DNA of 64,000 bases from a virus. Under the pieces are notes generated by a model. That model worked only from the letters and a program-made list of their open reading frames with translations. It was not told the DNA's origin and ran no database searches. The DNA is taken from the IMG/VR virus record IMGVR_UViG_3300020392_000004, one strand, 5' to 3'. This document shows, one piece after another, positions 33,967 through 62,580 of this stretch (positions are counted from its first letter, which is position 1; every line of letters starts with the position of its first letter). A program made the position numbers and the translations under genes.

Positions 33967-33974
33967 TATTTATA
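33967..33974 (-). promoter_or_regulatory. Late promoter TATAAATA
   Basis: Exact consensus upstream of gp18. Confidence 0.8.
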
Positions 33975-33993: not shown

Positions 33994-35598
33994 TTACCAT
34001 TTAATCTCCACATCATTAGAATTAGAGAACCAACGGTCACCTTCATCGTCTACGAAAGTGGTCTCTTCGGGTTTTTGACCCCCGAATACTCCTGCTGGAA
34101 GTAAATCGTCTTCTATCATCTTCTGTTGTTCTGCATATAACAGGTCTTTCACCTGTGTATCTGTTAAATGATAGAAGTAATCAGTTGTTATAAACCATGA
34201 AAATAATACTAGATTCATTACCATATCGTCATGATATCCTCTGTCTGCTTCAAATGAATTACCCTTATTGACAAATGTCATTAGCTCTGTTATAGTAGGT
34301 CGGTCTATTACAGATAGACGGTCTTCCTCTAATAGTTCTTTTAGAGTAGAACACCCAATTCTCTTAATTTTTTTGTTGACCGATATCCCTATATCTTCTG
34401 ATTTTAACTGTCCTTGAGTAAAAACATTTGGATACTCAATATCATAATGCAATTGTGTTGCAACAATTCCACCCTCTGCATTATTTTCTATAATTACAAG
34501 AGCCTCGTTAAAAGGTCTTGCATATTTATTTATAATATCAGGAAACAGCATGGGACTTATCATGTCGTCTCTGAATGTGCAAACTTGTCTGAATGGTTTT
34601 GTTGTGACATCAAAAATACTAAATGTAGAGAAGTCCATACCTCTTCCTTTTGCAACATCAACTGTGCAAACATAATTATGACCCTCTACTGGTTTCTCAT
34701 ATAGACTTACATTGTCTTTTGACCATTCGGGGTCTACTGCTCTCATTCCTAATAAAGTATTAGAATTAATTAATGTATTACCAGTTCCAAGGAAACTATT
34801 ACCATACTCTTGTTCAAATTGTGCCTCTGATGTGTTTGCAATGGTCATTTCCTTCCATTCTTTATCACGGCCCGGCACATCATACCAGTTTATTATAAAA
34901 CTCTTGTATTCGGACTGCTCGTGGACAGCACTCTCATATATTTTATGGAACATATTACCCACACCATTTGCAGTTGAGGTTATAATAACCTTTGAATCTT
35001 TACCCGAGGTAATAACGGGATATGTTGCAGTATAGAATGTCTCTGCATCGTCCACGAATGCAAACTCGTCCAAGTATAGTAAATTGATTGACATACCACG
35101 AATTGAACTTGAACTTGTTGCAGCTGCAACTACTTTTGAATCATTTGAAAATTCTATAGAACCTTTGTTGAGAATCTTAACGCCTGGCTGTAAAAAGAAT
35201 GGAACAGACTCTAACATGGTCACGATTCTTGCAATCATTTCTCTTGCAATTGCACCTTTGTTTGCAAGAACAGCTACAGTGACTTCGGGGTGAAACAATA
35301 AGAACCATAATAGATATGCACACGAGGTTATTGATTTACCACTCTGTCTACTTGCAAGAACTACATTAAATCTATTTTTATCATAGAAGTTTATAAGGTC
35401 TTCTTGATAACCGCGAAGTTTAAATGGAACCATACCTTCATCAAGAGATATAATCTGTGTATAATTCTCTATGAAATGTGCTGGGTCTTTGGAACATTTA
35501 AGATACTCCTCCATTTGTTCAGAGGTATAAGCAGTATCAACACCAGCTCTCTTAATGAGTGTGTTTCCTAGATATCCTTCATTAGTCGGTTTAACCAT
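33994..35598 (-). CDS. gp17: Terminase large subunit gp17
   Basis: SRQSGKS, YLDEFAF, ITSTANG, FEQEY, DVAKG, HDDMVM. Confidence 0.98.
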   Translation of the reverse strand: MVKPTNEGYLGNTLIKRAGVDTAYTSEQMEEYLKCSKDPAHFIENYTQIISLDEGMVPFKLRGYQEDLINFYDKNRFNVVLASRQSGKSITSCAYLLWFLLFHPEVTVAVLANKGAIAREMIARIVTMLESVPFFLQPGVKILNKGSIEFSNDSKVVAAATSSSSIRGMSINLLYLDEFAFVDDAETFYTATYPVITSGKDSKVIITSTANGVGNMFHKIYESAVHEQSEYKSFIINWYDVPGRDKEWKEMTIANTSEAQFEQEYGNSFLGTGNTLINSNTLLGMRAVDPEWSKDNVSLYEKPVEGHNYVCTVDVAKGRGMDFSTFSIFDVTTKPFRQVCTFRDDMISPMLFPDIINKYARPFNEALVIIENNAEGGIVATQLHYDIEYPNVFTQGQLKSEDIGISVNKKIKRIGCSTLKELLEEDRLSVIDRPTITELMTFVNKGNSFEADRGYHDDMVMNLVLFSWFITTDYFYHLTDTQVKDLLYAEQQKMIEDDLLPAGVFGGQKPEETTFVDDEGDRWFSNSNDVEIKW

Positions 35599-36485
35599 TA
35601 ATAAAGATTCCCATATGAATATTGATTAGGACTATCATTCCATTCATTATGGAAGTCCCAATAATTATGTAAACACCAGTGTGTAGGTTCTCTAAAATTA
35701 CTAAACAAATACTTGTTATCAAATCCTACTTCCCAACCACAACAGTTGTCACTGTAGAATTCATATTCTAATCCACCGTAAAAGTCTCCATCGTAAATAA
35801 GTTTCATATCTGCTATGTTATCTCTAGAGTCGAACCACCTTTGTCCAGTATATCTTGAACCCATACCTTCTATTATAGGTTCCATTAGTTTTAAAAACTC
35901 TGCTGTATAAGGTTCTATCACGCCACCATCGTCTGTCATAATTTTCTTTTCTTCTTTTAATTTGATATCATACAGTTTGACTGTGTTCGGATATAATTTA
36001 TCGTAGACACCTCTGTCTTTAGCAGCGTCACATAGGTCTATCAATCCTTCTTGATATACATTGTTTCCAATCATTTCATGGATATAGATATCTGCTTCAG
36101 GCCATTCAATATCTAAAAAGTCTCCTTGAATTACTTGCCACTGTGGCATTCTTCCTTTCAAATAAACAATAGGGTGAAATTGTGCATCAACTCCGATACA
36201 CTTTTTTGCACCAAAAAAATCTGCAAGAAATAACAATGCACCAGGCCCACAACCTAAATCACATACAACTTTACCTTCTGCATTTGCAGCTAAAAAATCT
36301 GCATATGCTTTTTGTCTCTGTGAATCTCTAATCATTCTCCAATATCCACCTGCTCTTTTACTCATGGTTTCAACTGCAAGAAACCACGCAGGGTGTGATT
36401 CGTCCACATGTGCTGGTGCAATCGGGCACTTATCGTTTTCTACTTCTTGTCTTAATCTTTGTAAGTGTTGTTCACGGTTATTCAT
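35598..36485 (-). CDS. SAM-dependent methyltransferase, PRMT-like
   Basis: MIRDSQRQKAY, motif I VCDLGCGPG, post-I CIGVD, double-E loop HEMIGNNVYQE, PTHW. Confidence 0.8.
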   Translation of the reverse strand: MNNREQHLQRLRQEVENDKCPIAPAHVDESHPAWFLAVETMSKRAGGYWRMIRDSQRQKAYADFLAANAEGKVVCDLGCGPGALLFLADFFGAKKCIGVDAQFHPIVYLKGRMPQWQVIQGDFLDIEWPEADIYIHEMIGNNVYQEGLIDLCDAAKDRGVYDKLYPNTVKLYDIKLKEEKKIMTDDGGVIEPYTAEFLKLMEPIIEGMGSRYTGQRWFDSRDNIADMKLIYDGDFYGGLEYEFYSDNCCGWEVGFDNKYLFSNFREPTHWCLHNYWDFHNEWNDSPNQYSYGNLY

Positions 36486-36876
36486 CTTTATTTTTCTTCA
36501 AGAACTTTTGCAACTCACTTGTCGAACCGACATATAAATGGTTGTGTTGAGTCTTGATAGAACTATCCTCTTTCTCTAAATCCTTTAATTTTTTCTGTAT
36601 GTCAATAAGTTTCTCTGCCGTCTCTGAAACGGTTTTTATCAATTGACCAGCAACCTCATATGCACGAGGGTGTTCTGTTTCTTTGGATAGTTCTAATATG
36701 CCGTCTATGGCGTCTTGTCCTCGTTCTACGAGGTCGTAGAGGTTCTCACGGGCATATTTGTAGTCAGTTTCAATGTTCTCTGTCCTAGCAGGAACTTTGA
36801 CTAACTTGGTTTCTTGTTTGATATCAGAATTGATATCTAGAAGATTATCTAATGTTTTATCTATTTCCTTTGTCAT
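36478..36876 (-). CDS. gp16: Terminase small subunit gp16
   Basis: DYKYARENLY, HPRAYEVAGQLIK, LYVGSTSELQK. Confidence 0.95.
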   Translation of the reverse strand: MTKEIDKTLDNLLDINSDIKQETKLVKVPARTENIETDYKYARENLYDLVERGQDAIDGILELSKETEHPRAYEVAGQLIKTVSETAEKLIDIQKKLKDLEKEDSSIKTQHNHLYVGSTSELQKFLKKNKDE

Positions 36877-39636: not shown

Positions 39637-39644
39637 TATTTATA
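39637..39644 (-). promoter_or_regulatory. Late promoter TATAAATA
   Basis: Exact consensus upstream of gp13. Confidence 0.8.
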
Positions 39645-39928: not shown

Positions 39929-40618
39929 TTACTTTGTTAAATTGAATGTTTCGTCTAAATCAAACAAGTTCCAATCTTCATCTATTTGACCTACTTGGTG
40001 ATTTCTCTGATTACCTATGTGATTAGTATTAACATTAAATGAAATAGAGTATCTATCTTTATCAGTTCTATTAGGTTCAACCATATGCATCATGGCACTT
40101 GGAAACATAATTAAACTTCCTGTGACAGGTTTTACTGCATAACTTTCTATACACCTTGCATTTGGTGGGTAATCTGATACAACCTTTGGGTCTGTATTGA
40201 TAGCTAAAAATTGACCTTCGTCTCCTTCTGAATGTATATAAAAAGCTCCACTATACCAACAACCATTGTGTAAGTGAGGTCTATTCCATGCAAGGTGGTC
40301 GTTTATATTTGCCCATGAATTACCTATATCTATCTGAACTTTTCCTCTATCGATACCATGGAATCCTGCTATCTCATTATTTAATATGTCTTTTAAAACT
40401 CTCATCAACTTAATAAATGTAGGGTGATTTTCACAACCGTCATTTGATTGCCAACCAGTATAGGCATTTGATATCTGTCTTCCAACTGGGTCTTTTTTTC
40501 TCATACCATCTATTGCGTCCTTCAACATTCCACAATATTCACTTGTAATCCTACCACTCTCTACAAGGTTTTCCTCATAACAAATAGTTGGAAATAGTAA
40601 TCTAATCCCTTTCTTCAT
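39929..40618 (-). CDS. Putative 2OG-Fe(II) oxygenase (TIGR02466-like)
   Basis: LFPT, GWQS, WANIN, PHLH, SGAFYI, MFPS.MMH.VEPN, RYSISFN. Confidence 0.85.
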   Translation of the reverse strand: MKKGIRLLFPTICYEENLVESGRITSEYCGMLKDAIDGMRKKDPVGRQISNAYTGWQSNDGCENHPTFIKLMRVLKDILNNEIAGFHGIDRGKVQIDIGNSWANINDHLAWNRPHLHNGCWYSGAFYIHSEGDEGQFLAINTDPKVVSDYPPNARCIESYAVKPVTGSLIMFPSAMMHMVEPNRTDKDRYSISFNVNTNHIGNQRNHQVGQIDEDWNLFDLDETFNLTK

Positions 40619-41546
40619 GTCCGTCCCAGTTTAAGTCTGTCAAACTTCTTTGTTTCTCTTTGAAATCCATTTCTAATTGAACTTCTTCTTTCTTATGCAT
40701 AGGGCATTCGGGTGGAGGATTTTCACCTTCTGCATATAGATTAGCTTTATTAGTTTTAAATCCACCTTTTCTATAACCACCGATATTCAGTCTATCGTCA
40801 ACTGATTTATAAGCACCAGTTTCCATATCTATTAATCCTTGTTTCACTTGCCATTTTTGCATTGATTGTTCTGATATTCCATGGGTATTAAACCAGTCTT
40901 TAGATTCTCCATAAAAATAAGTTGATTTCCATTCGTCTCTTTTATAGGGAACTATTTGTAGTATAGGTGTTCCTTTCGGTATAATAAAAGAATGTTTTAC
41001 TTTAGGATAGAATATAATTTGTGCATTATCCATACCTAAATTAAAAGTATCTGTATCAATTATACCTTGCCATACTGCAAAATATTTATTTTGAAATAAG
41101 AATGGGTCTATGAAAAAAACTGAATAGCCTGGAGGTGTAGTTATGTTCCAAAAGTTTCCCATTTTAAATGCATCTTTTACAGGCCCTTCGTCACCCATAT
41201 ATTCAAATGAATCTTGGAACTGTGCAGCTGGGTGAGTTGGTGACGCTTGCATATTATCACTTCCGTCTAAATGAAATGGGCTAGTGGTCATTCTTTCACT
41301 TTCTTCTGGCCAATCCCAATCAAATCCATTCATAACAGGAATGTCACATGCAGTAATAATATACCAACCAGTTTTTAAATAATCGTCCATGGCTGGACAA
41401 GACCTAACAGTTTGAGCTCCCTCTCCTCTATGGTCAATTCTAATCTTTGCAGTTTTCCACCATTCAGGCATGTATGTTTTTGCAACAACAGGCTTGAATC
41501 TCTGAAAAGCTTCGGGATTATATGTTCTAAATTCAATTGTTGGCAT
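40602..41546 (-). CDS. Conserved marine-phage hypothetical protein (double-stranded beta-helix-like)
   Basis: PEWWK, TVRSCPAMDD, ITTPPGYS, GIIDTD, IPKGTPILQIVPYKR; a family commonly found next to phage oxygenases. Confidence 0.65.
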   Translation of the reverse strand: MPTIEFRTYNPEAFQRFKPVVAKTYMPEWWKTAKIRIDHRGEGAQTVRSCPAMDDYLKTGWYIITACDIPVMNGFDWDWPEESERMTTSPFHLDGSDNMQASPTHPAAQFQDSFEYMGDEGPVKDAFKMGNFWNITTPPGYSVFFIDPFLFQNKYFAVWQGIIDTDTFNLGMDNAQIIFYPKVKHSFIIPKGTPILQIVPYKRDEWKSTYFYGESKDWFNTHGISEQSMQKWQVKQGLIDMETGAYKSVDDRLNIGGYRKGGFKTNKANLYAEGENPPPECPMHKKEEVQLEMDFKEKQRSLTDLNWDGHEERD

Positions 41547-42270
41547 ATCTTTGGTGTTCGTCTAGTAAACGAACTTCGTCTCCTCTTAAAACAATAGACT
41601 TCCTATCTATATATCTTGCGTCTTTAGAGGGTGATTCTGCACCGTGTGGTATTCTTCCGTCAAACATTAAGAGACGATTCGGTTTGAATCCAACTCTTCC
41701 TATTTCATATCTATCCATGAGTTTTCTTGCACCCGTAGGGACATATCTGTCATAAAATCTTAAATCACCACCCCAGTTTTCATTCCAAAAAGTATTAGTG
41801 TAATATAAAAATGATAAATTATAATCGTCTTCCATACTACAATCAGAATGACAACTTCCGTCTAAACCGTGTGTTTGTGAGTTTGTTCCCATGTATTGAA
41901 ATCTTACCCACTCAAAAGCAAAATCAGTTCTAATCTTTCTATCAAACCAATACATTAAATGTGGAGTTCCATATTTGTGTGATTCACATTCTAATTTTAA
42001 GTATCTTCCGTCACCTGCTTCTCTTCCTCTGAAATATGAAGCTCCCCATAATTGGTGATTCGGTAAACCACCTCTACCACCGTCACCTTGAACTTCGTTA
42101 TGTTTTTGCCATGAGGTTCTTTGACTTAAAAAAAGGTCTACTGCTTGATGAAGTGAGGAATCTAGATAATTGTCTATAACATATACCTTATTACCAAGAG
42201 GCAACTCGGTTATATAAAAGGGAGAATCAATATCGATTCTTTCTATAGAGTTATAGGTTTTGCTCGGCAT
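41533..42270 (-). CDS. 2OG-Fe(II) oxygenase (prolyl hydroxylase-like)
   Basis: HSD, FLYY...W.ENWGGDL.F, PNRLLMFDG.IPH, R.SIV. Confidence 0.85.
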   Translation of the reverse strand: MPSKTYNSIERIDIDSPFYITELPLGNKVYVIDNYLDSSLHQAVDLFLSQRTSWQKHNEVQGDGGRGGLPNHQLWGASYFRGREAGDGRYLKLECESHKYGTPHLMYWFDRKIRTDFAFEWVRFQYMGTNSQTHGLDGSCHSDCSMEDDYNLSFLYYTNTFWNENWGGDLRFYDRYVPTGARKLMDRYEIGRVGFKPNRLLMFDGRIPHGAESPSKDARYIDRKSIVLRGDEVRLLDEHQRYANN

Positions 42271-44536: not shown

Positions 44537-45433
44537 TTAACTAGAAATCGGAGTTCCAGGCCACTGTTGTTGTAATACACCGTCCCATCTTGGAACTGGT
44601 GTTCTTCCTTGTCTTGCGTAAGTGGTTGGATTCTGATTTGAATATGTAGTCGGTGTTTGACCCTGTCTAGCATAAGTCGAAGGACTTCTATGATTGTAAG
44701 TAAATGGTGTCTGACCTTGTCTTGCATAAGTTGTTGGGTTCTGATTTGCATAGGTAAAAGGAGTTCGTCCTGTTGCCTGATATGTTGAAGGTGACCTAAA
44801 GTTATATGTAAACGGTGTTTGACCTTGTCTCTCGTATGTTGACGGAGATTGATAATCATAAGTAGACGGTGTTTGACCCTGTCTTTCATAAGTTGAAGGA
44901 GACTGATAATCATATGTGAAAGGTGTTTGACCTGTTCTTTGATATGTTGAAGGTGACCTATAATCGTAAGTAGAAGGTTGCCTTGCGTCTCTTATGTTTG
45001 GTTCTTGTGCTGACCTAATGTTTGGTTCTTGTGCTGACCTAATGTTTGGTTCTTGAGCATTAGCAGGGTATGTAAATGGTTGTTGTCCTGACCTAATATT
45101 AGGCTCCTGTGCTGACACTGGGTTTCTGTAAGTGAAAGGTGACCTATGATGATATGTAAAAGGTTGTCTTGCTGGTGCTTGATATGTAAAGGGTGACCTA
45201 TAATGATATGTAAAAGGTTGTCTTGCTGGTGCCTGATAGGTGAATGGTGACCTATAATGATATGTAAATGGACTTCTAGCAGGTGCTTGATATGTAAACG
45301 GTGACCTATAGTTATAAGTGAATGGTTGTCTTGCACTTGCAATATATGGGTTTTGAGTTCCGTATGGGCTCTGATAACTTGCACCGACTGGTTGTCTTGC
45401 TTGAAATGTAAATGGACTCTGATAAAATGGCAT
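44537..45433 (-). CDS. Gln/Pro/Tyr/Thr-rich repeat protein (mirror partner of 45436-46947)
   Basis: 31 xxP-anchored units of 6-12 aa. Confidence 0.85.
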   Translation of the reverse strand: MPFYQSPFTFQARQPVGASYQSPYGTQNPYIASARQPFTYNYRSPFTYQAPARSPFTYHYRSPFTYQAPARQPFTYHYRSPFTYQAPARQPFTYHHRSPFTYRNPVSAQEPNIRSGQQPFTYPANAQEPNIRSAQEPNIRSAQEPNIRDARQPSTYDYRSPSTYQRTGQTPFTYDYQSPSTYERQGQTPSTYDYQSPSTYERQGQTPFTYNFRSPSTYQATGRTPFTYANQNPTTYARQGQTPFTYNHRSPSTYARQGQTPTTYSNQNPTTYARQGRTPVPRWDGVLQQQWPGTPISS

Positions 45434-46791
45434 AATTATCTCTTCTGCATGTTATGGACTACAAAGTCATTTGCAAAGAAGTTAGCATTATCACTTACAC
45501 GAGTCAAGTGATAGACCTCATGTTCTCCTTCCAGTTTGTTAATATTTGATATTTTTGCAGTTGATTGATTGTTTAAAATCAATGATAATGAATCTACAAG
45601 AATATCCCCCTCTTCAATTAGGCCAGAGATTTCTCCACCCCAAGCTGCACCCATGGCAACTTCTTTTTCCCAATCTTCCATGTTTATGACACACCAACCT
45701 TTATCTTGAATCAACATTGGGTGTCCACCAGTCACACCAGTAATCTTACCGTTGACTTCTATATCATATAATTCACATACTCTAGGTTGCATAATTTCTT
45801 CGACCACTCCAACTTCTAGTGTATCTCCTAGTGTCATGACTGACATACCAATCTCTATAGACTCGATAGGTCTGTATGTATTGTCTCCCATCCATATCAT
45901 AGTTCCCATTGCGAAACAACCGTGTCCAGTAGGTAAGCCTGGTGAACCACCGCCTGGGTAGTAAACTGGTTGTCTTGCTTGACCGATATATGGACTCTGA
46001 TATGAGAACGGAACTGGTTGTCTTGCACTGCCCGGCTGTCGTGCATGATAGGTAAATGGGTTTTGAGCAGACCTAATGTTTGGTTGCTGAATATTCGCAG
46101 GATATGTAATTGGTTGTTGAGCAGACCTAATGTTTGGTTGCTGAATATTCGCAGGATATGTAAATGGATTCTGTCCATTCCTGATATTCGGTTGTTGAAT
46201 ATTTGCTGGATATGTAAATGGATTCTGTCCATTCCTGATATTAGGCTCCTGTGCTGACACTGGGTTTCTGTATGTAAACGGTGACCTATAGTTATATGTA
46301 AATGGACTCCTTGCTGATGCTTGATAAGTGAACGGAGACCTGTAGTTATATGTAAACGGTGACCTATGATTGTATGTAAAAGGTGACCTATGGTCGTATG
46401 TGAACGGATTCTGTCTGTTCCTTATATTCGGTTCCTGTGCATTTGCAATGTAAGGATATGGCTGTTGTGCATTTCTGATATTAGGTTCCTGTGCATTTGC
46501 CTGATAAGGATAAGGAGTTTGTTTATTCCTTATGTTTGGTTCTTGAGCATTTGCAATGTAAGGATATGGTTGTTGTGCGTCCCTAATGTTTGGTTCCTGT
46601 GCATTTGCAATATACGGATAAGGTTGTTGTGCATTTGCAATATAAGGTGACCCACCGTTTGCAATATAAGGATAAGGTTGTTGTGCGTCTCTTATATTTG
46701 GTTCTTGAGCATTTGCAATGTATGGATATGGATTCTGTGCATTTGCAATGTATGGAGAACCACCCTGTGCAATATATGGGTAAGGTTGTTG
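44606..46791 (-). repeat. Two coding arrays of degenerate 24/30-bp units (44606-45421 and 45976-46791)
   Basis: Tandem units such as tgctgacctaatgtttggttctt; includes an identical 35-bp direct repeat at 45096-45130 and 46238-46272. Confidence 0.9.
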
Positions 46792-46947
46792 TGTTGCCTC
46801 TTGACCTGAAGCATTATTCCACCCGCCTGGAGCTTTGATATAAATTTGGTCAACTGCTTTCCAAGTAGACGGGCCTGTCTTGACCCATGCACCTTGAGTT
46901 GCATTCCAACCTGATGGGGTTTTAACTTTCTGTGAACCTGACGCCAT
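45436..46947 (-). CDS. Fibre-associated Gln/Pro/Tyr repeat protein with C-terminal HINT (intein-like) domain
   Basis: Trp-rich N-terminus (WVKTG..TWKAVDQIYIK..GGW), 31 repeat units, then CFAMGTMI...TGGHP...NFFANDFVVHN. Confidence 0.88.
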   Translation of the reverse strand: MASGSQKVKTPSGWNATQGAWVKTGPSTWKAVDQIYIKAPGGWNNASGQEATQQPYPYIAQGGSPYIANAQNPYPYIANAQEPNIRDAQQPYPYIANGGSPYIANAQQPYPYIANAQEPNIRDAQQPYPYIANAQEPNIRNKQTPYPYQANAQEPNIRNAQQPYPYIANAQEPNIRNRQNPFTYDHRSPFTYNHRSPFTYNYRSPFTYQASARSPFTYNYRSPFTYRNPVSAQEPNIRNGQNPFTYPANIQQPNIRNGQNPFTYPANIQQPNIRSAQQPITYPANIQQPNIRSAQNPFTYHARQPGSARQPVPFSYQSPYIGQARQPVYYPGGGSPGLPTGHGCFAMGTMIWMGDNTYRPIESIEIGMSVMTLGDTLEVGVVEEIMQPRVCELYDIEVNGKITGVTGGHPMLIQDKGWCVINMEDWEKEVAMGAAWGGEISGLIEEGDILVDSLSLILNNQSTAKISNINKLEGEHEVYHLTRVSDNANFFANDFVVHNMQKR

Positions 46948-52823: not shown

Positions 52824-54419
52824 TTATCCCTCGCCAGAGATATATGGTGTTTGTCCACCGTCACCTTCACTTCCTTTTTGGAATTGTGCGTTTGGAACTG
52901 CTTGGTGTATCTTTTCTATACCTTGAGGTGCATGGACATATACCTCTTGTGCTTTTGCAACTACACCTTGGTTATTTACAAAGACACCTTTTACTTTTGC
53001 AACAGCTCCAACTGGTCTAGTTGTAGTGTATGGTTGTCTAGCAATATACGGAGAACTGTAAATATACGGTTGTGGTTGTTGGTGTATATAAGGAAATGGT
53101 TGTCTTCCTGTTGCACTACTCGTGACTTGTTGAGTTCTCTGAACAGAATATTGAGAAGGTGATTGATAATCATATGTAAAAGGACTTCTTGCATCTGCAA
53201 TATAAGGATATGGATTTTGTTTATCTCTTATATTAGGTTGTTGTATAGAAGCAGGATTATTATAAATCGAAGGTGATTGATAATCATATGTAAATGGTGT
53301 TTGACCTGTTCTTTGATATTCAGAAGGTGACTGATAATCATATGTGCTTGGTTGTTGGTATTGATATATTACTGGTTGTCTTGCATCCTTAATAGTTGGT
53401 TGTTGTCCCTGTCTTGCCTCTGCATATGGTGAGTTATATTCATATGTGCTTGGTGACCTATTTGGTTGTCGAGAAATATAAGGTTGTTGTGTTTCGAATG
53501 TTGGTGTTCTCCCCTGTCGAGAATATGTAAATGGTGACTGTGTCTGTGCTTGTGCTTGGCCTGGGATTTGGTAAGCGTGGTCTTCCCCTGAAAAGGGGTT
53601 AAAATAAAATGTTGTATTTTGAGCCTGTGTAATATATGGAACAGGTTGACCACCATTTGCAATATACGGATACGGATTTTGTGTCGATATTGCTTGAAAG
53701 GAACTTGGAGACCGTTTACTAGCATTTGGGATAGATGTTTGATATTGATATATGGCAAAGCCTGGAGAATCATCATCAAAGAAACGCCCTGGCGCCTGTG
53801 GAAACGGAGAAGATTGATAAGTTCCGAGATTCGGTTGTTGGTGTTGGTATATAACAGGATTTTGAACATTATGTGGTTGTGATACTCCCGCCTGTGCAAT
53901 TGGTCTCTGTGCATTAAAAGAAGATTGAACACTTGTTTGTTTGTTTCTAATTACTGGTTGTGTAAATTGTCCAATATAAGGAAATGGTGATTGATAATCA
54001 TATGTAAAAGGACTCTGTTTACTTACATCTTGTTTAGTAGTTTGTTTATTTCTTATATTCGGCTCTTGTGCGCTTGCAATATATGGATATGGTTGTTGTG
54101 CGCTTCTTATAAAAGGGTTCTGTCCTTGAGTTGAATTCTGATATGTAAACGGAGACTGATAATCATATGTGCTTGGTTGTTGACCCTGTCTTGCATATGT
54201 AAAAGGTTGTTGTGCGTCCTTAATAGTTGGTTGTTGATTCTGTGCTTGGTGGACATAGAAAGCAGGACTTTGGTAAATGAAAGGATATGGTTGTTGTCCT
54301 TGTCTATTTACTGAAACCTGTGTTATTCTTTGTGTTGTTTCAAAAGCTTGATATGCAACTTGACCCTGATAGGGTTGTTGGATTTGTGTCCCTTGATTTA
54401 TGTATATTTCATCAGCCAT
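52824..54419 (-). CDS. Gln/Pro/Tyr-rich repeat protein with internal mirror symmetry
   Basis: Same unit vocabulary (QEPNIRNK, QQPYPYIASA, QSPFTYDY, QSPSEYQRTG) as 44537-46947. Confidence 0.85.
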   Translation of the reverse strand: MADEIYINQGTQIQQPYQGQVAYQAFETTQRITQVSVNRQGQQPYPFIYQSPAFYVHQAQNQQPTIKDAQQPFTYARQGQQPSTYDYQSPFTYQNSTQGQNPFIRSAQQPYPYIASAQEPNIRNKQTTKQDVSKQSPFTYDYQSPFPYIGQFTQPVIRNKQTSVQSSFNAQRPIAQAGVSQPHNVQNPVIYQHQQPNLGTYQSSPFPQAPGRFFDDDSPGFAIYQYQTSIPNASKRSPSSFQAISTQNPYPYIANGGQPVPYITQAQNTTFYFNPFSGEDHAYQIPGQAQAQTQSPFTYSRQGRTPTFETQQPYISRQPNRSPSTYEYNSPYAEARQGQQPTIKDARQPVIYQYQQPSTYDYQSPSEYQRTGQTPFTYDYQSPSIYNNPASIQQPNIRDKQNPYPYIADARSPFTYDYQSPSQYSVQRTQQVTSSATGRQPFPYIHQQPQPYIYSSPYIARQPYTTTRPVGAVAKVKGVFVNNQGVVAKAQEVYVHAPQGIEKIHQAVPNAQFQKGSEGDGGQTPYISGEG

Positions 54420-55719: not shown

Positions 55720-55921
55720 GTGTTTTCTCTATAAGTTCCTTCAATAAACCTTTTATATCACTCAATTCATCTTTTAGATTATTTATGTCTTCTCTCTGAT
55801 TTCTCATAATTTGTCTTCTTCTCATTGTAAGACGATATTGTTCAACATCAGTATTAATGATTGCATGAGACTCTTCGTCTCTAACTAAATGTGAATGTCC
55901 TTCTACTTTTAAATCTGCCAT
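55712..55921 (-). CDS. Conserved hypothetical T4-like phage protein
   Basis: KVEGHSHLVRD..S.AIINTD plus C-terminal coiled coil. Confidence 0.75.
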   Translation of the reverse strand: MADLKVEGHSHLVRDEESHAIINTDVEQYRLTMRRRQIMRNQREDINNLKDELSDIKGLLKELIEKTHG

Positions 55922-58900
55922 TATGCTAATGCCATGACTCTCAATGCAGATACCATTGGAACTACACTAGAGTTTTGACCTTGTCCTACAATTTTAATTA
56001 TGAAAGAAGAGAACTCTGGCAAGTCATTTACGGTATATTCATATTCCTTAAAGTTTCTTGCATCATTCTCAACTGCACTATCGGGTGAACCATCTGTATT
56101 AAAGAATTCAAATCCTATATCGTCAAGTGGTGTTTGTTCGTCACTCTTGACAATTTTAAACATATACTTCAATTCAGTTGTCGGTGGTCTAAAGTTATCT
56201 GCAATCACCTTGAGTGAAGTAGCTGGATTTTTAAGGTTTACCTTTCTTGTCACATAGATAAATGCATTTTGGTCACCTTCGGGTTCTGTTGAAGGTATAT
56301 GTGTAATATCTGATGGTAATGACACCGTCACTCCGTCAACTTTCTTACCACTTTGATTATCTATGTTATTAATTCTATTTGATATTGCAATACAACCAAT
56401 CGTTCCAACATCTATCACTGGTGATACATTTGGATTTCTTGACAACATTTGAGTTATCAATCTGAATGACCTTTGTGATTGCATTTTATTTGTTTCGTTA
56501 ACCACTGAAGCAACTATGCCTGGAGCGTCTAGGAATGTATTATCATTCAGTGTTATAAAGTTGTTTGTTGTTCTTCTATTGTAAACTGTATCTCCTGAAC
56601 TTATGAATCCTTCTGGCGATTTCATTGCAGTTGTATTGATACTTGATACTACTTTACAACTTCCAACTTGTGTAGAAGGTATCATAGTATGTAATGAATC
56701 AAAGATATAGTTTCTAGATACTTGGACTGATGAACCACCACCTGTTGTTGTTTCTAATGCAGTATAACCACTTACAAATTTACTTTTATCTATAAAACTA
56801 GTTAGATTACATGCAACATTGAATGAATCAATACCTATATTTGCAACACCATTAGTTGAGGAGTCTCCAAATGTTGTATTGATTGCAGCGACTGGGATAC
56901 CTCCTAGTGTATCACCGATTGCCACCACTGTGATTGTTAAGTCTGCTGTTCCACCGTCAAAGTTATCGAATGTGACTGTATTACCGACTGCATATCCTTG
57001 GCCTGGATTTACAATTCTTATACCATTTGTTGTCCCTATTGCACCACTTGCTATCTCTACATTTATTATCATACCTGTTCCACTTCCATCTGTGGAATCA
57101 GCAGTTTGTGCGTTATGATTACCGTCACTTGGTGTCTCTGATAAACTTGGACTTCCTACTTCTAATACAGAACCTACTCTATCTCCGACTACTCCTGATA
57201 TTTGAACATTTGAACTTTCGTCATATAATCCATGATTGTATGCAGAAACTTTCACATTATTACTACTTACAGTTGTTAATAATGGATTTTTTCCTAATGT
57301 ATCTAATTCAAGGTCTTTATTTTCAAAATGTATAGCAGGAATTTTAGTAGTATCAAACTTACATATCTTCATAGTAAATTTCATATCATCTGTTTGTTCT
57401 GCTGTCCATGTTGAAGCATTCTGTGATAAGAATAATGAACCTGCGTATGGTTGACCTGATATCTGTTGTCCTGAAGCTAAATCAGTTTCACCCATTCTTG
57501 ATATCCATTGTTCATATTCATTTGAGTTTGAGTAAACAATCAATGCATATTCTTTCTTCTCTTCAACATAAACTGGTGATTCGAATGAGAATGTTGTTGC
57601 AACTGTTCCGTCAGCAGATATATTAACATCACTTGGATTCTTTGTGACTGTTGAGAAAGGTAATACTATTTGGCCTGGATATCCATTTACCATGTTTCTA
57701 ATTTCAACTGAAACTGGCATGTGTGTATCTTTTGCTTGGAAGAATACATCTACGGAAGATATAAACATTCCTCCACTTGCCTCACATAAGAATGATTGTG
57801 CAAGTGGGTCACCCCAACCTCTTTCTAACCTAGAACCAATTCTAAATTCTAATTCAGGTGGTAAAGGTGGAACTGGTATTGCTGGTGGTTCTGGCACCTC
57901 TATTGGGAATACAATTACTGGGTCTGCCACAATAGGTTCAGGTATCGGTATAGTATCGACTGGAATATCGGGTGCAATCGTATCGGTTGGAGATATGTTT
58001 AATCTTTCACCTCTTCTTTGTATCTGTCTCTCACCCTCTGTTAATTGTGATATAACTCTTCCATTCCTTGTTGAAACAATTTCTGTTTGTGAACTTGACA
58101 ATAATCCTTGAGCTTGGTATACTGCTGAACCTGAACTTGGTGGATTAGATAAGTTATGGAATGAAGAGGTTAACTTTAATTCTCTTTGTCCTGTAGGGAA
58201 TCTTTGAGTTTCAGTATTTGGTAATTCAAAGAACCCTCTCAATCTTCCATTACCGTCTGATTTAAGATTTGAAGAGACTGTAGTTCCACCGTCCTGTGAA
58301 TATGCAGTTGATTGTGGTCTCACAAACTTATCTACTCTGATTCCGTCAAAGAAGAAGTAATGGTTTGTATTTGGTTTTAAGTTTGTTGCATCTATCTCAA
58401 TAGTTCTTGCCCTCATGAAAGGGATAATTGCAACTGATACTATTCTATCGTTTCTTGTTTCTACAAAATCTTCTACAACACTTGTAGTGATACCTGTTCT
58501 AGTTTGTATCTCGGGTGACTCTGTAATTTCTCTAGTGACTTCTTGACCCGCTTGCCATTCACCACCTTGAGCTGGGTCACCTGACCATGAACCTGCTGTA
58601 GTTGATTGAACTTCTGATTCAACTGATGAAGGTTCTCCAACCCATGTTGTTTGCCATGAGTTCCAAACTGTTCCTAAAGAGTTTCCAACTCCTGACATAA
58701 CAGCGTCAAAGTTTCCTTCTCTATTAACTCTAACATCGGGTAATCTTTCTGTATCGTTCCATATGTCGGTGCCTGGCGTTAATTTAACATTACCGATAAA
58801 TGCAAAGACATGATATGGGTTAACATTAATATGTCTTGAAGCTTTATCTTGATTAATATAATTTACTTCTGTAAATGGTAGAGTAATCAAGTCACCAGTC

Positions 58901-61900
58901 TGTTGATAGTTCGTTGAATTTGTTGTATCTAAATTCAAATCAAAGAACTGTTGCATATTTTGAGGTCTTAACATACCCATTTTTGTATCGATAGAACATT
59001 TATAATCGGGGTGGTTAACATCACCAATCTTATGTCCTCTAAAGTTATCGACCAAGAATCCTGACTTGAATCTATCGAATCCGTCTGCATCTAATACCTG
59101 TGCAGATTGTGTATCTTTTTCTAATAGAGATAGGGAAGTGACTCTTTCTAGGTTTGTGACTCTTTTATTAATACGACCTATGTCTTTCATGGTGTATCGT
59201 CTATGGTCAAAACTTCTAACTTTAATCTCTGATAATTTTTTTGTAAATGCTGGTATGAACAATTCAAACATTTCTATTGAATCGTCAATTGCTTTAGGTC
59301 TAGTTGGTGATAATGACGGGATACCTGTTGATATTTCAAATAGTCCGTCTTTACCAAGATAGATTCTATCTATTCTAGAAGTATAGAATTCTATATCTCC
59401 AACTGTTGCACCACCCTTCATAGGTGTGTCTAAAGCAGCTGCACCTGCTCCTGTAAATACTTTGTTTTCATATTTGAATGGGTCACCACTTAATCCACTT
59501 GATATGTTTGCTGGACTACTTGGGTCGGGATTTGCAGAAGAGAAGTTTGCATCTGAAAATAATTGTGCAACTGTTGGTCTATAATCGACTGCATCTGATA
59601 GTTCGTATTCACCATCAGGTTCTAATCCACCCATATCTATTCTGTTCGGTGAGTAAACTGGTATTTCTTTATAGTCTAAACCTGCGTCTGTATATGAATT
59701 TACATCATAAAACTCTCCACCATTTGAAGTGAAGTTATCGAAGACTATGAGAATTGAATTGTTTGGTGTAGGTTCACCAGGCTTCAGTGTAATTTTTGCA
59801 ATATCATAGAAACCATCTCTCTGACCATTGTCAAAGAAATATCTTTGTGTGATATTATCTGACCCTGTTGTTATTAGGTCTATATCTGCAGCTGCATTTG
59901 TTATTTGACCTACACATGTTTCTCCGTCTGTAAAGACAAAGTCATTTAAGTAATAGAAAAATGTTGACCCTGAATTTGCATATTTAACAATTCTTGCTTG
60001 GGCACCTGATGTTTGACCTATGATTACTTCGTCTTTTACAAAGTCTGTTCCTGTATAAGAAGCACCACCTAATCTTCCACTTGGAGGTAAAGGTGTAGAA
60101 CCACCGATACCTTCATAGACTGCTCTAACTGATAATACATCTGCAACACCTAATGTTATGTCTTTGTTATCATAACATGTTCCGTAATCTGAAGCACCTG
60201 CTACAAATGCAGTATCTACTATTGCACAACGAGACCTATTTAATACTTTGTTTCTATGTTCAGGTGAATCGTCAATAACTGTAAATGATACTAGATATTT
60301 TACTCCGTCTGAAGCAGTAGTATCGAACTGAATCGATTGACCACCACCACCGAGGTTAGATGCAGTTGGAGGTGAACTTGCAAAATCTATCTCTGCACCT
60401 AATACATTTCCTCCACCTGTATTACCGTCAGTATTTAAAATTGATAACTGGAAATTATCTCTATCTACTGTAGAGAAGGTTTCACCTGCTCCAGTTGTGA
60501 TTGTGACCTTACCACCTGAAGCTGCAATCACTTTTTGTCTTCTTATTGATATTCTATCAGGTGTATGTTTTTTTACATAATCTCTTGGCCATGCATATAT
60601 TGCTACTGCTTGGTCTTGGTCAAATAGTTTGACTCTCCTTCTTGTTGCAGAAGGGTTGACATCAAATGCTGTGACACTACTTGTTGCAACTGTTTGAGCT
60701 GTGACTGAATCTGTGACGGTAGAAATTACTTGTTCGTCACCATTACCATCGATAATGATATCACCCTCTTTAAGTTCAGCAGTAAATCTTGTTCCAAAAC
60801 CAGTGATATTACCATTGGCTGCAATTGATACACTTCCTGTTAATGTGTTATCACCGTCTGCAACTGCATCTGCTGTAAAGTCTGCATCACCTGAACCACT
60901 TCTTTCTTGTCCTATACCTCTAACTCTGTCTATGTTAAATGTTCTAACTTGGTTTGCAATACCTCTAAAGTTTTCTCCGACTACAGTGAATGTTGCAGTT
61001 CCGTCACCTTCTGATGTAATTGTCTCACCATGCACGAATGTTCCTACAACATCATGAACATACATATTTACACCGTTGACATGACCTACGATACCTGTTG
61101 CACCTGATGTTCCACCGATAACTCTATCACCAACATTTGAATTTGATATTGAGCTACCAGCTTTTAATTTAGTGAACATTTTTATATCAAAGAGATATAA
61201 ACCTGTGTTATCGTTTGTGGCTCCAAAGTTGTCTATATGTCTAACTCTTGCAAAACCAATATGGTCTTCACTGTTTAGTGTTCCTGCTACTGCTGTGATA
61301 CTTGGGAATAATTTACATATTGCATATGGTGTGATTGCACTTGCACCACTCTCATTACCAAAATCGGGAAACCCAAAACCATTTTTGACTTTTATGAATT
61401 GTCCTAATCTTGTTGGAGTATTTGCAGTATTTAATGTGACTGTTTGTCTTGCTTTGTTTATGTTTAGATTGGAAGTTCCAATTTTATCTATCTCATATCC
61501 CTTAACATATGCCTTTCCTGGCGATACTTGGAATACAAATTTTTCTTCTTTACCACCTTGTGCTTTGAGATAGAATCCTCTGTTTGTTGAATCGTCTAAA
61601 TGTTCTCTTAAACTATGTGTAAACTGATTGACTATGAAATCACCGTTTGCATCGAAAGTTCTTCGTGCAAGAGTGTTTTCAATCTCTGTATACATAGGTC
61701 GATTAGTATGAAGTTCAATCTGACCTTTGTTAACTCTAACTAACTCTATGAAGTTTGCATCTTCTGTGGAAGTTAAATCATATTTGGAAAGAGTTAATGT
61801 AAACTTGAGTCTATCAGCACCAGCTGCATTTTCATTTGAAGTTCCCTGTGCATTATCATAGAGAGAACTATCTTCTGCAACTGATATTAATTCTTCTTTT

Positions 61901-62580
61901 ATTGTAAGACCTATTCTATTTGAAGGTTTTGCATTGTATTTTTCTAGAATTAATTGTTGTTCGTCTACTTTTACAAAGAATCCTCTACAAAATACTACAC
62001 CCTCTGATATATTTGCAATAGAAGTTCTTCCAACTGGAGTTGTTGAAGCAGCTGCTACTTTAAAATCATTATTACTTGCTGTATCTTCTGCTACTGTTCC
62101 ACTTGAATCGAATCCACACTTAACTAAAGTTTCGTCTCCAGCGAATGAGAATGAGTTGTTTGCATCTGTTCCTTGTCTTTCTAATCGAACATATAGAGTA
62201 ATGAAATCTGTTGAGGTTTCTGCATCTGAATTGATAACTTTTGCAACGACACCTGTTGTTTGTCCTTTTATAAACTGACCATGGTAAGAAGTTCTGTATG
62301 ATTCTACTGCAGCGTCACCACTTGAATTAGGGTTTGCAGCTAAAACTTTTACATAATATAAATCAAAGTCAATATCTGACTGGGCTCCTGTGACGATGGA
62401 ACCTTCTTTGAAGAAATGGTCACCGAATCTTTCTATTTGATTCTGTAATACAGATTGTGATTGTGTTAGTTCCCTTGCTTGTAAGGGACGACCAGCTCTG
62501 TATAACAGTTTATGAAACTGTTTTGATTCCGAATAATCATCGTAATAGGGTGATATGTTTAAATCAGTCTTTTCTGCCAT
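55921..62580 (-). CDS. Large virion structural protein (DUF4815/VrlC-like)
   Basis: LNISPYYDDY, PLQARELTQSQ, AAGADR, LARRT.D..GDF, YTMKDIG, RFKSGF.VDNF, DPLAQSF. Confidence 0.88.
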   Translation of the reverse strand: MAEKTDLNISPYYDDYSESKQFHKLLYRAGRPLQARELTQSQSVLQNQIERFGDHFFKEGSIVTGAQSDIDFDLYYVKVLAANPNSSGDAAVESYRTSYHGQFIKGQTTGVVAKVINSDAETSTDFITLYVRLERQGTDANNSFSFAGDETLVKCGFDSSGTVAEDTASNNDFKVAAASTTPVGRTSIANISEGVVFCRGFFVKVDEQQLILEKYNAKPSNRIGLTIKEELISVAEDSSLYDNAQGTSNENAAGADRLKFTLTLSKYDLTSTEDANFIELVRVNKGQIELHTNRPMYTEIENTLARRTFDANGDFIVNQFTHSLREHLDDSTNRGFYLKAQGGKEEKFVFQVSPGKAYVKGYEIDKIGTSNLNINKARQTVTLNTANTPTRLGQFIKVKNGFGFPDFGNESGASAITPYAICKLFPSITAVAGTLNSEDHIGFARVRHIDNFGATNDNTGLYLFDIKMFTKLKAGSSISNSNVGDRVIGGTSGATGIVGHVNGVNMYVHDVVGTFVHGETITSEGDGTATFTVVGENFRGIANQVRTFNIDRVRGIGQERSGSGDADFTADAVADGDNTLTGSVSIAANGNITGFGTRFTAELKEGDIIIDGNGDEQVISTVTDSVTAQTVATSSVTAFDVNPSATRRRVKLFDQDQAVAIYAWPRDYVKKHTPDRISIRRQKVIAASGGKVTITTGAGETFSTVDRDNFQLSILNTDGNTGGGNVLGAEIDFASSPPTASNLGGGGQSIQFDTTASDGVKYLVSFTVIDDSPEHRNKVLNRSRCAIVDTAFVAGASDYGTCYDNKDITLGVADVLSVRAVYEGIGGSTPLPPSGRLGGASYTGTDFVKDEVIIGQTSGAQARIVKYANSGSTFFYYLNDFVFTDGETCVGQITNAAADIDLITTGSDNITQRYFFDNGQRDGFYDIAKITLKPGEPTPNNSILIVFDNFTSNGGEFYDVNSYTDAGLDYKEIPVYSPNRIDMGGLEPDGEYELSDAVDYRPTVAQLFSDANFSSANPDPSSPANISSGLSGDPFKYENKVFTGAGAAALDTPMKGGATVGDIEFYTSRIDRIYLGKDGLFEISTGIPSLSPTRPKAIDDSIEMFELFIPAFTKKLSEIKVRSFDHRRYTMKDIGRINKRVTNLERVTSLSLLEKDTQSAQVLDADGFDRFKSGFLVDNFRGHKIGDVNHPDYKCSIDTKMGMLRPQNMQQFFDLNLDTTNSTNYQQTGDLITLPFTEVNYINQDKASRHINVNPYHVFAFIGNVKLTPGTDIWNDTERLPDVRVNREGNFDAVMSGVGNSLGTVWNSWQTTWVGEPSSVESEVQSTTAGSWSGDPAQGGEWQAGQEVTREITESPEIQTRTGITTSVVEDFVETRNDRIVSVAIIPFMRARTIEIDATNLKPNTNHYFFFDGIRVDKFVRPQSTAYSQDGGTTVSSNLKSDGNGRLRGFFELPNTETQRFPTGQRELKLTSSFHNLSNPPSSGSAVYQAQGLLSSSQTEIVSTRNGRVISQLTEGERQIQRRGERLNISPTDTIAPDIPVDTIPIPEPIVADPVIVFPIEVPEPPAIPVPPLPPELEFRIGSRLERGWGDPLAQSFLCEASGGMFISSVDVFFQAKDTHMPVSVEIRNMVNGYPGQIVLPFSTVTKNPSDVNISADGTVATTFSFESPVYVEEKKEYALIVYSNSNEYEQWISRMGETDLASGQQISGQPYAGSLFLSQNASTWTAEQTDDMKFTMKICKFDTTKIPAIHFENKDLELDTLGKNPLLTTVSSNNVKVSAYNHGLYDESSNVQISGVVGDRVGSVLEVGSPSLSETPSDGNHNAQTADSTDGSGTGMIINVEIASGAIGTTNGIRIVNPGQGYAVGNTVTFDNFDGGTADLTITVVAIGDTLGGIPVAAINTTFGDSSTNGVANIGIDSFNVACNLTSFIDKSKFVSGYTALETTTGGGSSVQVSRNYIFDSLHTMIPSTQVGSCKVVSSINTTAMKSPEGFISSGDTVYNRRTTNNFITLNDNTFLDAPGIVASVVNETNKMQSQRSFRLITQMLSRNPNVSPVIDVGTIGCIAISNRINNIDNQSGKKVDGVTVSLPSDITHIPSTEPEGDQNAFIYVTRKVNLKNPATSLKVIADNFRPPTTELKYMFKIVKSDEQTPLDDIGFEFFNTDGSPDSAVENDARNFKEYEYTVNDLPEFSSFIIKIVGQGQNSSVVPMVSALRVMALA

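Follow-up and report, generated by a model that had tools for sequence, protein, structure and literature searches.

A compact gene of the protein arginine methyltransferase type between the terminase genes of an uncultured marine T4-like phage

What is a gene with the catalytic signature of protein arginine methyltransferases (PRMTs) doing between the two terminase genes of a phage? PRMTs are textbook eukaryotic regulators, and arginine methylation has been little studied in bacteria and their viruses. The gene encodes a protein of 295 aa and lies in a stretch of 64,000 nt (the window), comprising the structural and late region of an uncultured marine T4-like myovirus (IMGVR_UViG_3300020392_000004). 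We consider it probable that the product is an intact, compact enzyme of the PRMT superfamily, most likely N-methylating arginine at the guanidino group, probably in a protein, and serving as a late, accessory function. This judgement draws on sequence comparison and a predicted structure. The gene and its presumed catalytic elements are located as follows.

35598..36485, minus strand: gene of a compact PRMT-like methyltransferase dependent on S-adenosylmethionine (SAM), 295 aa; from the open reading frame (ORF), phmmer, a family profile, an AlphaFold (AF2) model and the ratio of nonsynonymous to synonymous substitution rates (dN/dS)
36303..36326, minus strand: N-terminal helix D54-x2-R57-x3-Y61 (the 'D..R...Y' helix of PRMTs); aligned to the MLxDxxRTxxY helix of Trypanosoma brucei PRMT1 (TbPRMT1) and Hmt1
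36240..36266, minus strand: motif I VCDLGCGPG, residues 74-82, the SAM-binding glycine loop; aligned to PRMT motif I
36048..36077, minus strand: double-E loop E137-x8-E146 (HEMIGNNVYQEG, residues 136-147); aligned on SEWMGYxLxxE of PRMTs by HMMER and hhalign
35676..35684, minus strand: THW loop, residues 268-270 (within PTHW); from a global profile alignment

A preliminary description of this DNA had listed five motifs, and we found all of them in the ORF: D54-x2-R57-x2-A60-Y61, VCDLGCGPG, CIGVD (residues 96-100), E-x8-E and PTHW. Their conservation was followed in 63 unique complete homologous ORFs taken from 94 metagenomic and viral loci; 53 of these are full-length (235-322 aa, plus two fusions) and the other ten are truncated (188-200 aa). 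Residues D76, G78, G80 and G82 of motif I are invariant in all 63, and position 100, the acidic post-I residue (D100 in the window protein), is E or D in 63/63. D54 is kept in 58/63 homologues and R57, the presumed binder of the SAM carboxylate, in 53/63, the arginine being missing only from truncated variants; D54, R57 and Y61 are conserved in 53/53 full-length proteins. E137 and E146 are each kept, with the same spacing, in 52 of the 53 full-length homologues, the commonest subgroup of which reads HEWLTSEFWNE, near the canonical SEWMGYxLxxE. The [S/T]HW triplet is kept in 47/53 and its tryptophan in 52/53. The whole set (D54, R57, E137, E146 and [S/T]HW) is present in 47/53 unique full-length homologues at an identity of just 26-45%. 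Residues D54 and H269 would match a His-Asp pair of PRMT1; no D54-H269 covariation was seen among the homologues, and D54 is retained where the histidine is replaced.

Family databases say little about this protein: PHROGs has no family for it, and Pfam and NCBIfam gave generic methyltransferase matches only, all below threshold. In a phmmer search against PDB sequences, on the other hand, PRMTs came first (TbPRMT1 with E 3.6e-9, and Hmt1, PRMT3, CARM1, PRMT6 and PRMT8), with an alignment that extends from the D..R helix to the double-E loop, where E137 and E146 fall opposite the glutamate pair of the PRMTs. An exhaustive phmmer search over 1.84 billion representatives returned 269 relatives at E <=0.001, ~30 of which are short proteins (230-320 aa) matched end to end; a family profile, A1, was built from 29 of these short relatives. 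Run against PDB sequences, A1 reached PRMT3 at 3.7e-24, and its first 59 rows were all arginine methyltransferases. When A1 was aligned by hhalign with 14 canonical PRMTs (set A2), we obtained a probability of 99.9% and an E-value of 2.6e-34 over residues 45-180. A global alignment of the two hidden Markov models (HMMs) placed W251-E-V-G-F-D..F-S-N..T-H-W of the phage protein onto the canonical W-K-V-G-F..L-S-T-x-P..T-H-W.

The AF2 model of the full protein (predicted local distance difference test score, pLDDT, 87.5; predicted template modelling score, pTM, 0.86) leads to the same family. The top 50 Foldseek matches were all type I PRMTs with E ~1e-10, at a global root-mean-square deviation (rmsd) of 11-13 A in most rows. 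VIA-align gave Z 15-16 to PRMT6, PRMT7, PRMT1 and PRMT3 with rmsd 3.0-3.5 A over 205-220 residues (model residues 40-292, both domains), and all 50 of the matches listed were PRMTs. In the model, helices 192-200 and 202-214, which follow the first barrel strand, occupy the position of the PRMT1 dimerisation arm. The structural and profile comparison with PRMT1 and PRMT7 that the preliminary description had proposed (run here with Foldseek, hhalign and VIA-align) matched PRMTs throughout. Its identification of the protein as a PRMT, rather than PrmA or a generic small-molecule methyltransferase, holds: the glutamate pair is present and conserved, and no enzyme other than a PRMT is among the best structural matches. 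PrmA itself, tried as a candidate, scored 13.7 bits versus a cutoff of 22 over residues 69-101 only (33 residues), the NCBIfam prmA models scored 13-15 bits versus cutoffs of 183-269, and no PrmA was among the top structural matches. By its sequence and its predicted fold, then, the gene product genuinely belongs to the PRMT superfamily.

In the enzyme that we propose, SAM would be bound via the class I Rossmann domain, and an acidic pocket would be made up of the double-E loop (E137, E146), the THW loop (H269, W270) and the N-terminal D54/R57 helix. This pocket would most likely hold a guanidino group, so that the enzyme would most likely N-methylate arginine, probably in a protein.

A number of observations weigh against so specific an assignment, and most of them concern the C-terminal half. 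The local profile-profile alignment stops after the first barrel strand, short of THW. The domain folded alone (residues 160-295, pLDDT 78.7) matched neither PRMTs nor any other fold significantly: in a VIA-wide search the best Z was 3.4, to unrelated beta-sandwiches, and PRMT6, though aligned over more residues (89) than any other, reached Z 3.0; in Foldseek the top rows were mostly PRMTs, only at E 0.5-2.7. As the C-terminal half, which would bind the substrate, is so much diverged, the acceptor could be something other than protein arginine. Comparisons of co-occurrence and of arginine columns in TerS and TerL, the small and large terminase subunits, yielded no candidate substrate. PRMTs need dimerisation for activity, which is a further reservation. 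Lastly, a protein substrate should not be taken for granted, since for the bacterial relatives of PRMTs the reported substrates are peptides in secondary-metabolite pathways (PMC3417536).

The alternative that follows most directly from these reservations is that the enzyme acts not on a folded protein but on a short peptide or a small guanidino compound, such as free arginine or an arginine-derived metabolite. The barrel provides much of the protein-substrate surface of PRMTs; here it is cut short after THW and, taken alone, cannot be recognised as that of a PRMT. The preliminary description had spoken of a minimised barrel, and rightly so: ~25 residues follow THW versus ~55 in canonical PRMTs, and the last 15 residues have pLDDT <50 (disordered). 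That no protein substrate candidate emerged would also suit a small acceptor, and an activity of this kind would resemble that of the PRMT-like peptide methylases which bacteria encode in secondary-metabolite operons (PMC3417536). Still, no biosynthetic neighbours (non-ribosomal peptide synthetase (NRPS), oxygenase partner or transporter) accompany the gene in any of its three contexts, TerS/TerL, nrdA/nrdB or the replication module, and the model retains the two helices found where PRMTs have their dimerisation arm. A PRMT-like enzyme does make N-methyl-arginine from free arginine in streptozotocin biosynthesis. On balance we judge a small acceptor to be unlikely, and we keep to arginine methylation, probably of a protein.

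Does the PRMT architecture mean that the gene came from a eukaryote? In a quick, unrooted IQ-TREE analysis the A1 members and the verified proteins from the nrdA/nrdB slot fell on one side with a Shimodaira-Hasegawa-like approximate likelihood ratio test (SH-aLRT) support of 99, and the canonical PRMTs on the other. Among the neighbours in the ESM Atlas nearly all clusters were labelled 'Viruses 100%, Uroviricota'. Because the phage branch is separate from the canonical PRMTs and the Atlas neighbours are almost all viral, the term 'eukaryote-type' of the preliminary description fits the architecture of the protein, not its ancestry. Eukaryotic PRMTs have themselves been derived from bacterial peptide methylases (Aravind et al., PMC3417536).

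So far the branch, as delimited by sequence similarity, has been found in phages only. A tblastn search with the window protein and the nrd-slot relative P0156 gave no match in 50,697 cultured or deposited phage records. A scan of cellular genomes with a narrow family-specific pattern, which does not exclude cellular relatives, found one locus, L099 (PACV01000026.1), itself a phage fragment. This 11-kb fragment is of the same phage clade (TerL 87% identical, methyltransferase truncated) and was binned in the Flavobacteriaceae metagenome-assembled genome NAT163; three Atlas neighbour clusters were labelled Bacteroidota or Pseudomonadota. The binning and these labels are either a weak hint of the host or mis-binning.

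Relatives are common in metagenomic phages: in IMG/VR, contigs that encode them numbered >=235 by a pattern scan. Among the best 80 methyltransferase-anchored loci, 69 show the order TerS-methyltransferase-TerL; the flanking genes in loci of this order are 62-99% identical to those of the window, the methyltransferase only 26-45%. We also anchored the comparison on TerS, in 77 loci with both TerS and TerL on the locus and with an empty slot defined as a gap of <=20 nt. The slot was empty, TerS abutting TerL, in 53/77 loci; 14/77 carried a full-length gene and 10/77 a remnant (188-200 aa or less). Remnants keep the GxGxG domain and have lost R57, both glutamates and the whole barrel; the truncated forms are of two types, 188-189 aa (loci L042, L046, L048, L051 and L036) and 198-200 aa (L027, L029, L032, L041 and L043). 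At two further loci (L101 and L103) ~550 nt lie between the 188-aa remnant and TerL. In the nearest complete phage, C48C1, TerS overlaps TerL. Given the 53 empty slots, the ten remnants and the empty slot of C48C1, the gene is optional (accessory) in this clade and is decaying in some lineages.

Elsewhere the family occupies other positions. In a separate lineage (L069, TerL 31% identical) a relative lies directly upstream of TerL. In loci L075 and L087-L094 relatives stand beside a gp44-like clamp loader, PhoH and a ClpB-like AAA+ ATPase, and in L075, L087 and L091-L094 the THW position reads NSW or NQW; the relatives in this context are probably from a jumbo phage, since one 128-kb record was estimated to be 37% complete. 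In two loci (L050:8936-10705 and L059:8960-10702) a fusion protein of 580-589 aa, encoded between nrdA and nrdB, carries the methyltransferase as its C-terminal third; in the first of these the 350 aa at the N-terminus matched only a PHROG labelled 'ferrochelatase' (phrog_2954, 4.6e-37), with no Pfam match and no significant PDB sequence match. The next tier of relatives, a sister group, consists of phage genes of 305-318 aa with an invariant E-x8-E and no clear THW; these genes are inserted between nrdA and nrdB and overlap the two (L095:8001-8957, L096:8001-8957 and L097:4270-5187), on T4-like contigs of up to 195 kb. We note as a separate observation that PRMT-like genes recur wedged between the subunit genes of two-subunit enzymes (TerS/TerL, NrdA/NrdB).

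Where it is present, the methyltransferase is under purifying selection: dN/dS was 0.12-0.29 in 12 pairs and 0.16-0.27 for the window protein versus close homologues. For TerS, TerL and gp15 the values were 0.03-0.09, so that the constraint on the methyltransferase is 3-5 times more relaxed. The homologous proteins are acidic, with isoelectric points of 4.9-6.0.

The setting of the gene in the window bears on when the enzyme would be made. In the window every large ORF is on the minus strand and G+C is ~36%; its TerL shares 55% identity with the TerL of Phage C48C1 (Kyanoviridae) and 44-46% with the large terminases of cyanomyoviruses. The features that matter here are the following.

36478..36876, minus strand: small terminase subunit TerS (gp16-like); PF11053 at 2.9e-8, phrog_445 at 1.1e-43
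33994..35598, minus strand: large terminase subunit TerL (gp17-like); Terminase_6N at 2.8e-23, Terminase_6C at 1.5e-10
39637..39644, minus strand: T4-type late-promoter-like TATAAATA, upstream of gp13; consensus match only
33967-33974: TATAAATA motif ahead of the sheath gene; consensus match

The ATG of the methyltransferase lies 8 nt within the 3' end of TerS (an overlap of 8 nt), and its TAA stop shares 1 nt with the ATG of TerL (TAATG). The T4 late-promoter consensus TATAAATA has 13 matches in the window, all on the coding strand, versus 6.1 expected, and 13 was reached in none of 100 shuffles. There is no intergenic TATAAATA between 39637-39644 and 33967-33974. Because one motif stands immediately before gp13 and the next intergenic one before the sheath gene, the methyltransferase (MT) gene is predicted to belong to a late unit gp13-gp14-gp15-TerS-MT-TerL; the enzyme would be made late from this unit and would be translationally coupled to both terminase subunits. 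Of the interpretation offered in the preliminary description, the PRMT-type enzyme is borne out and the coupling into a late unit agrees with the predicted promoters and gene overlaps, while eukaryotic descent and, as described below, the choice of repeat proteins as substrate are not.

What might such an enzyme methylate? The gene is accessory and often absent or decayed, and the enzyme would be needed neither for packaging nor for the repeat fibres; for these reasons we think it likelier that the target is a protein of the host, or a phage protein that is itself optional, than that it is a part of the virion the phage cannot do without. Taken together, the intact pocket, the fast evolution, the presence or absence of the gene, its decay and its varied insertion sites are more in keeping with an accessory gene of host interaction than with a function in virion maturation.

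One could speculate further that marine T4-like and jumbo phages possess an arginine-methylation system of their own, in which the enzyme would act as a late host-directed effector, possibly packaged and injected like Alt of T4. If so, arginines would be methylated on a host protein, for instance a factor of transcription, translation or anti-phage defence, in a chemistry of takeover or counter-defence parallel to the arginine ADP-ribosylation of T4, and an arms race would account for how fast the gene evolves, for its presence/absence polymorphism and for its decay. We offer this extension as a distinctly improbable one.

The preliminary description had proposed methylation of a virion protein, with proteins carrying RSP/RQP/RQG repeats as candidates, or of a host protein. 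Three such proteins are encoded in the window (44537-45433, 45436-46947 and 52824-54419), with repeat units RSPFTY, ARQPFTY, RQGQTPFTY and AQEPNIR; one of the three ends in a Hint-like domain. Maturation of the repeat fibre proteins (44537-46947 and 52824-54419), or of another virion protein, would agree with the predicted late co-expression with structural genes and with the arginine content of the repeats (9.1% Arg and 19 R[SQ][PG] motifs in the 298-aa protein), and methylated phage structural proteins have precedent, though by host enzymes (PMC13445384, PMC13288928). However, the repeat proteins are conserved across the clade whether the methyltransferase is present or absent. All five related empty-slot records encode repeat proteins (E down to 8e-59) with no methyltransferase found anywhere on the record; these records are 33-77% complete, and the positive control of the methyltransferase search was found in 4/4 cases. 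The repeat proteins also persist at loci where the methyltransferase has lost R57, both glutamates and the barrel (L039, L041, L042 and L047). Because they persist without the enzyme or with a remnant only, the repeat proteins are unsupported as its substrate; their modification would be dispensable at most, and we regard methylation of fibres or other virion proteins as maturation as very unlikely.

A role in DNA packaging, by methylation of TerS, TerL, the portal or the DNA during packaging, is suggested by the exact position of the gene, between TerS and TerL and overlapping both, in those 69 of the best 80 methyltransferase-anchored loci, and by the relative found directly upstream of TerL in the separate lineage. 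As 53/77 close relatives package DNA without the gene (in C48C1 TerS overlaps TerL itself) and as the family occurs in other contexts, with sister proteins next to the clamp loader or in the nrdA/nrdB slot, lying between the two terminase genes is not in itself a sign of a role in packaging. There was no carrier-specific arginine column in TerS or TerL (criterion, >=80% of carriers versus <=30%). We also considered and rejected a DNA N6-adenine or N4-cytosine methyltransferase: the motif IV (D/N/S)PP(Y/F/W) is absent after strand 4, where DIYIHEMIGNN is found, and from the rest of the protein. A packaging function is, in our view, extremely unlikely. Hardly more credible is that the window copy has lost catalysis and persists as a relic or as a regulatory, prozyme-like pseudo-enzyme: the locus does decay, as seen in the ten unique slot variants of 188-200 aa without catalytic residues, and constraint is relaxed 3-5 times relative to the neighbours, but the window protein has every catalytic residue, its dN/dS is 0.16-0.27, and the motifs are conserved at 26-45% identity.

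Two other parts of the window deserve mention. At 39929-42270, upstream of the neck genes, lie three overlapping genes, a block conserved in related loci; they encode two 2OG-Fe(II) (2-oxoglutarate- and iron-dependent) oxygenases (PF13759 at 4e-17 and PF13640 at 2e-7) and a 314-aa protein without family. At 55921-62580 there is a single ORF of 2219 aa on the minus strand.

A literature search for phage, viral or prokaryotic PRMTs, made mostly without subscription journals, found no description of a phage PRMT, and recent work on the methylation of phage proteins credits host enzymes (PMC13288928, PMC13445384). A compact PRMT with all the catalytic motifs is common in uncultured marine T4-like phages, and its place in the genome is a poor guide to its use, as neither packaging nor the neighbouring repeat fibres seem to require it. 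If active, the enzyme would offer enzymology a minimal PRMT scaffold of ~250-295 aa, it would represent a new type of phage-encoded protein modification to be sought in infected marine bacteria, and it would add a data point on the origin of PRMTs outside eukaryotes.

Several known systems can be compared with the phage protein. Alt, ModA and ModB of T4 are arginine ADP-ribosyltransferases that act on host proteins, and Alt is made late, packaged and injected. The likeness is one of functional analogy only, as fold and chemistry are unrelated to those of the PRMT-like protein. PrmA, the ribosomal protein L11 methyltransferase (PF06325), shares the class I Rossmann fold and a weak match around GxGxG; it has neither a double-E nor a THW loop and methylates lysine and N-terminal amines.

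The bacterial PRMT-like peptide methylases, compared here by description only, form a non-eukaryotic branch of the same superfamily, with the consequence that PRMT-type domains are not confined to eukaryotes (Aravind et al., PMC3417536). They sit in biosynthetic operons or in NRPS megasynthases, whereas the phage gene stands alone.

The top VIA match was the type III enzyme T. brucei PRMT7 (TbPRMT7; PDB 4m36, 4m38 and 5eku), with Z 16.1 at 16% identity; matches with Z 15.3 and rmsd 3.5 A over 205-207 residues were also obtained. TbPRMT7 is among the few PDB sequences that were aligned nearly end to end (profile positions 7-239 of 250 versus residues 39-301). The phage protein does not obviously share the residues reported to limit TbPRMT7 to monomethylation, and the product type is not inferable from it.

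The eukaryotic type I PRMTs (PRMT1 and its yeast form Hmt1, PRMT3, PRMT6, PRMT8, CARM1 and T. brucei PRMT1) matched the phage model with Z 14.6-15.3 and rmsd 3.0-3.5 A at only 18-23% identity. The phage protein is shorter, 295 aa (many relatives 235-264 aa) versus ~310-350 aa for the PRMT catalytic core; its barrel ends ~10 ordered residues after THW, and the last canonical strands are missing. The order of elements is the same: both have the D-x2-R-x3-Y helix, GxGxG, the acidic post-I residue, E-x8-E with identical spacing, YPN in the first barrel strand, two helices in the place of the dimerisation arm and a W..F..S[TN]..THW block. M51 of the phage protein aligns with the methionine of the ..EEML.D helix of type I PRMTs, which is M48 of PRMT1, a residue of type I product specificity.

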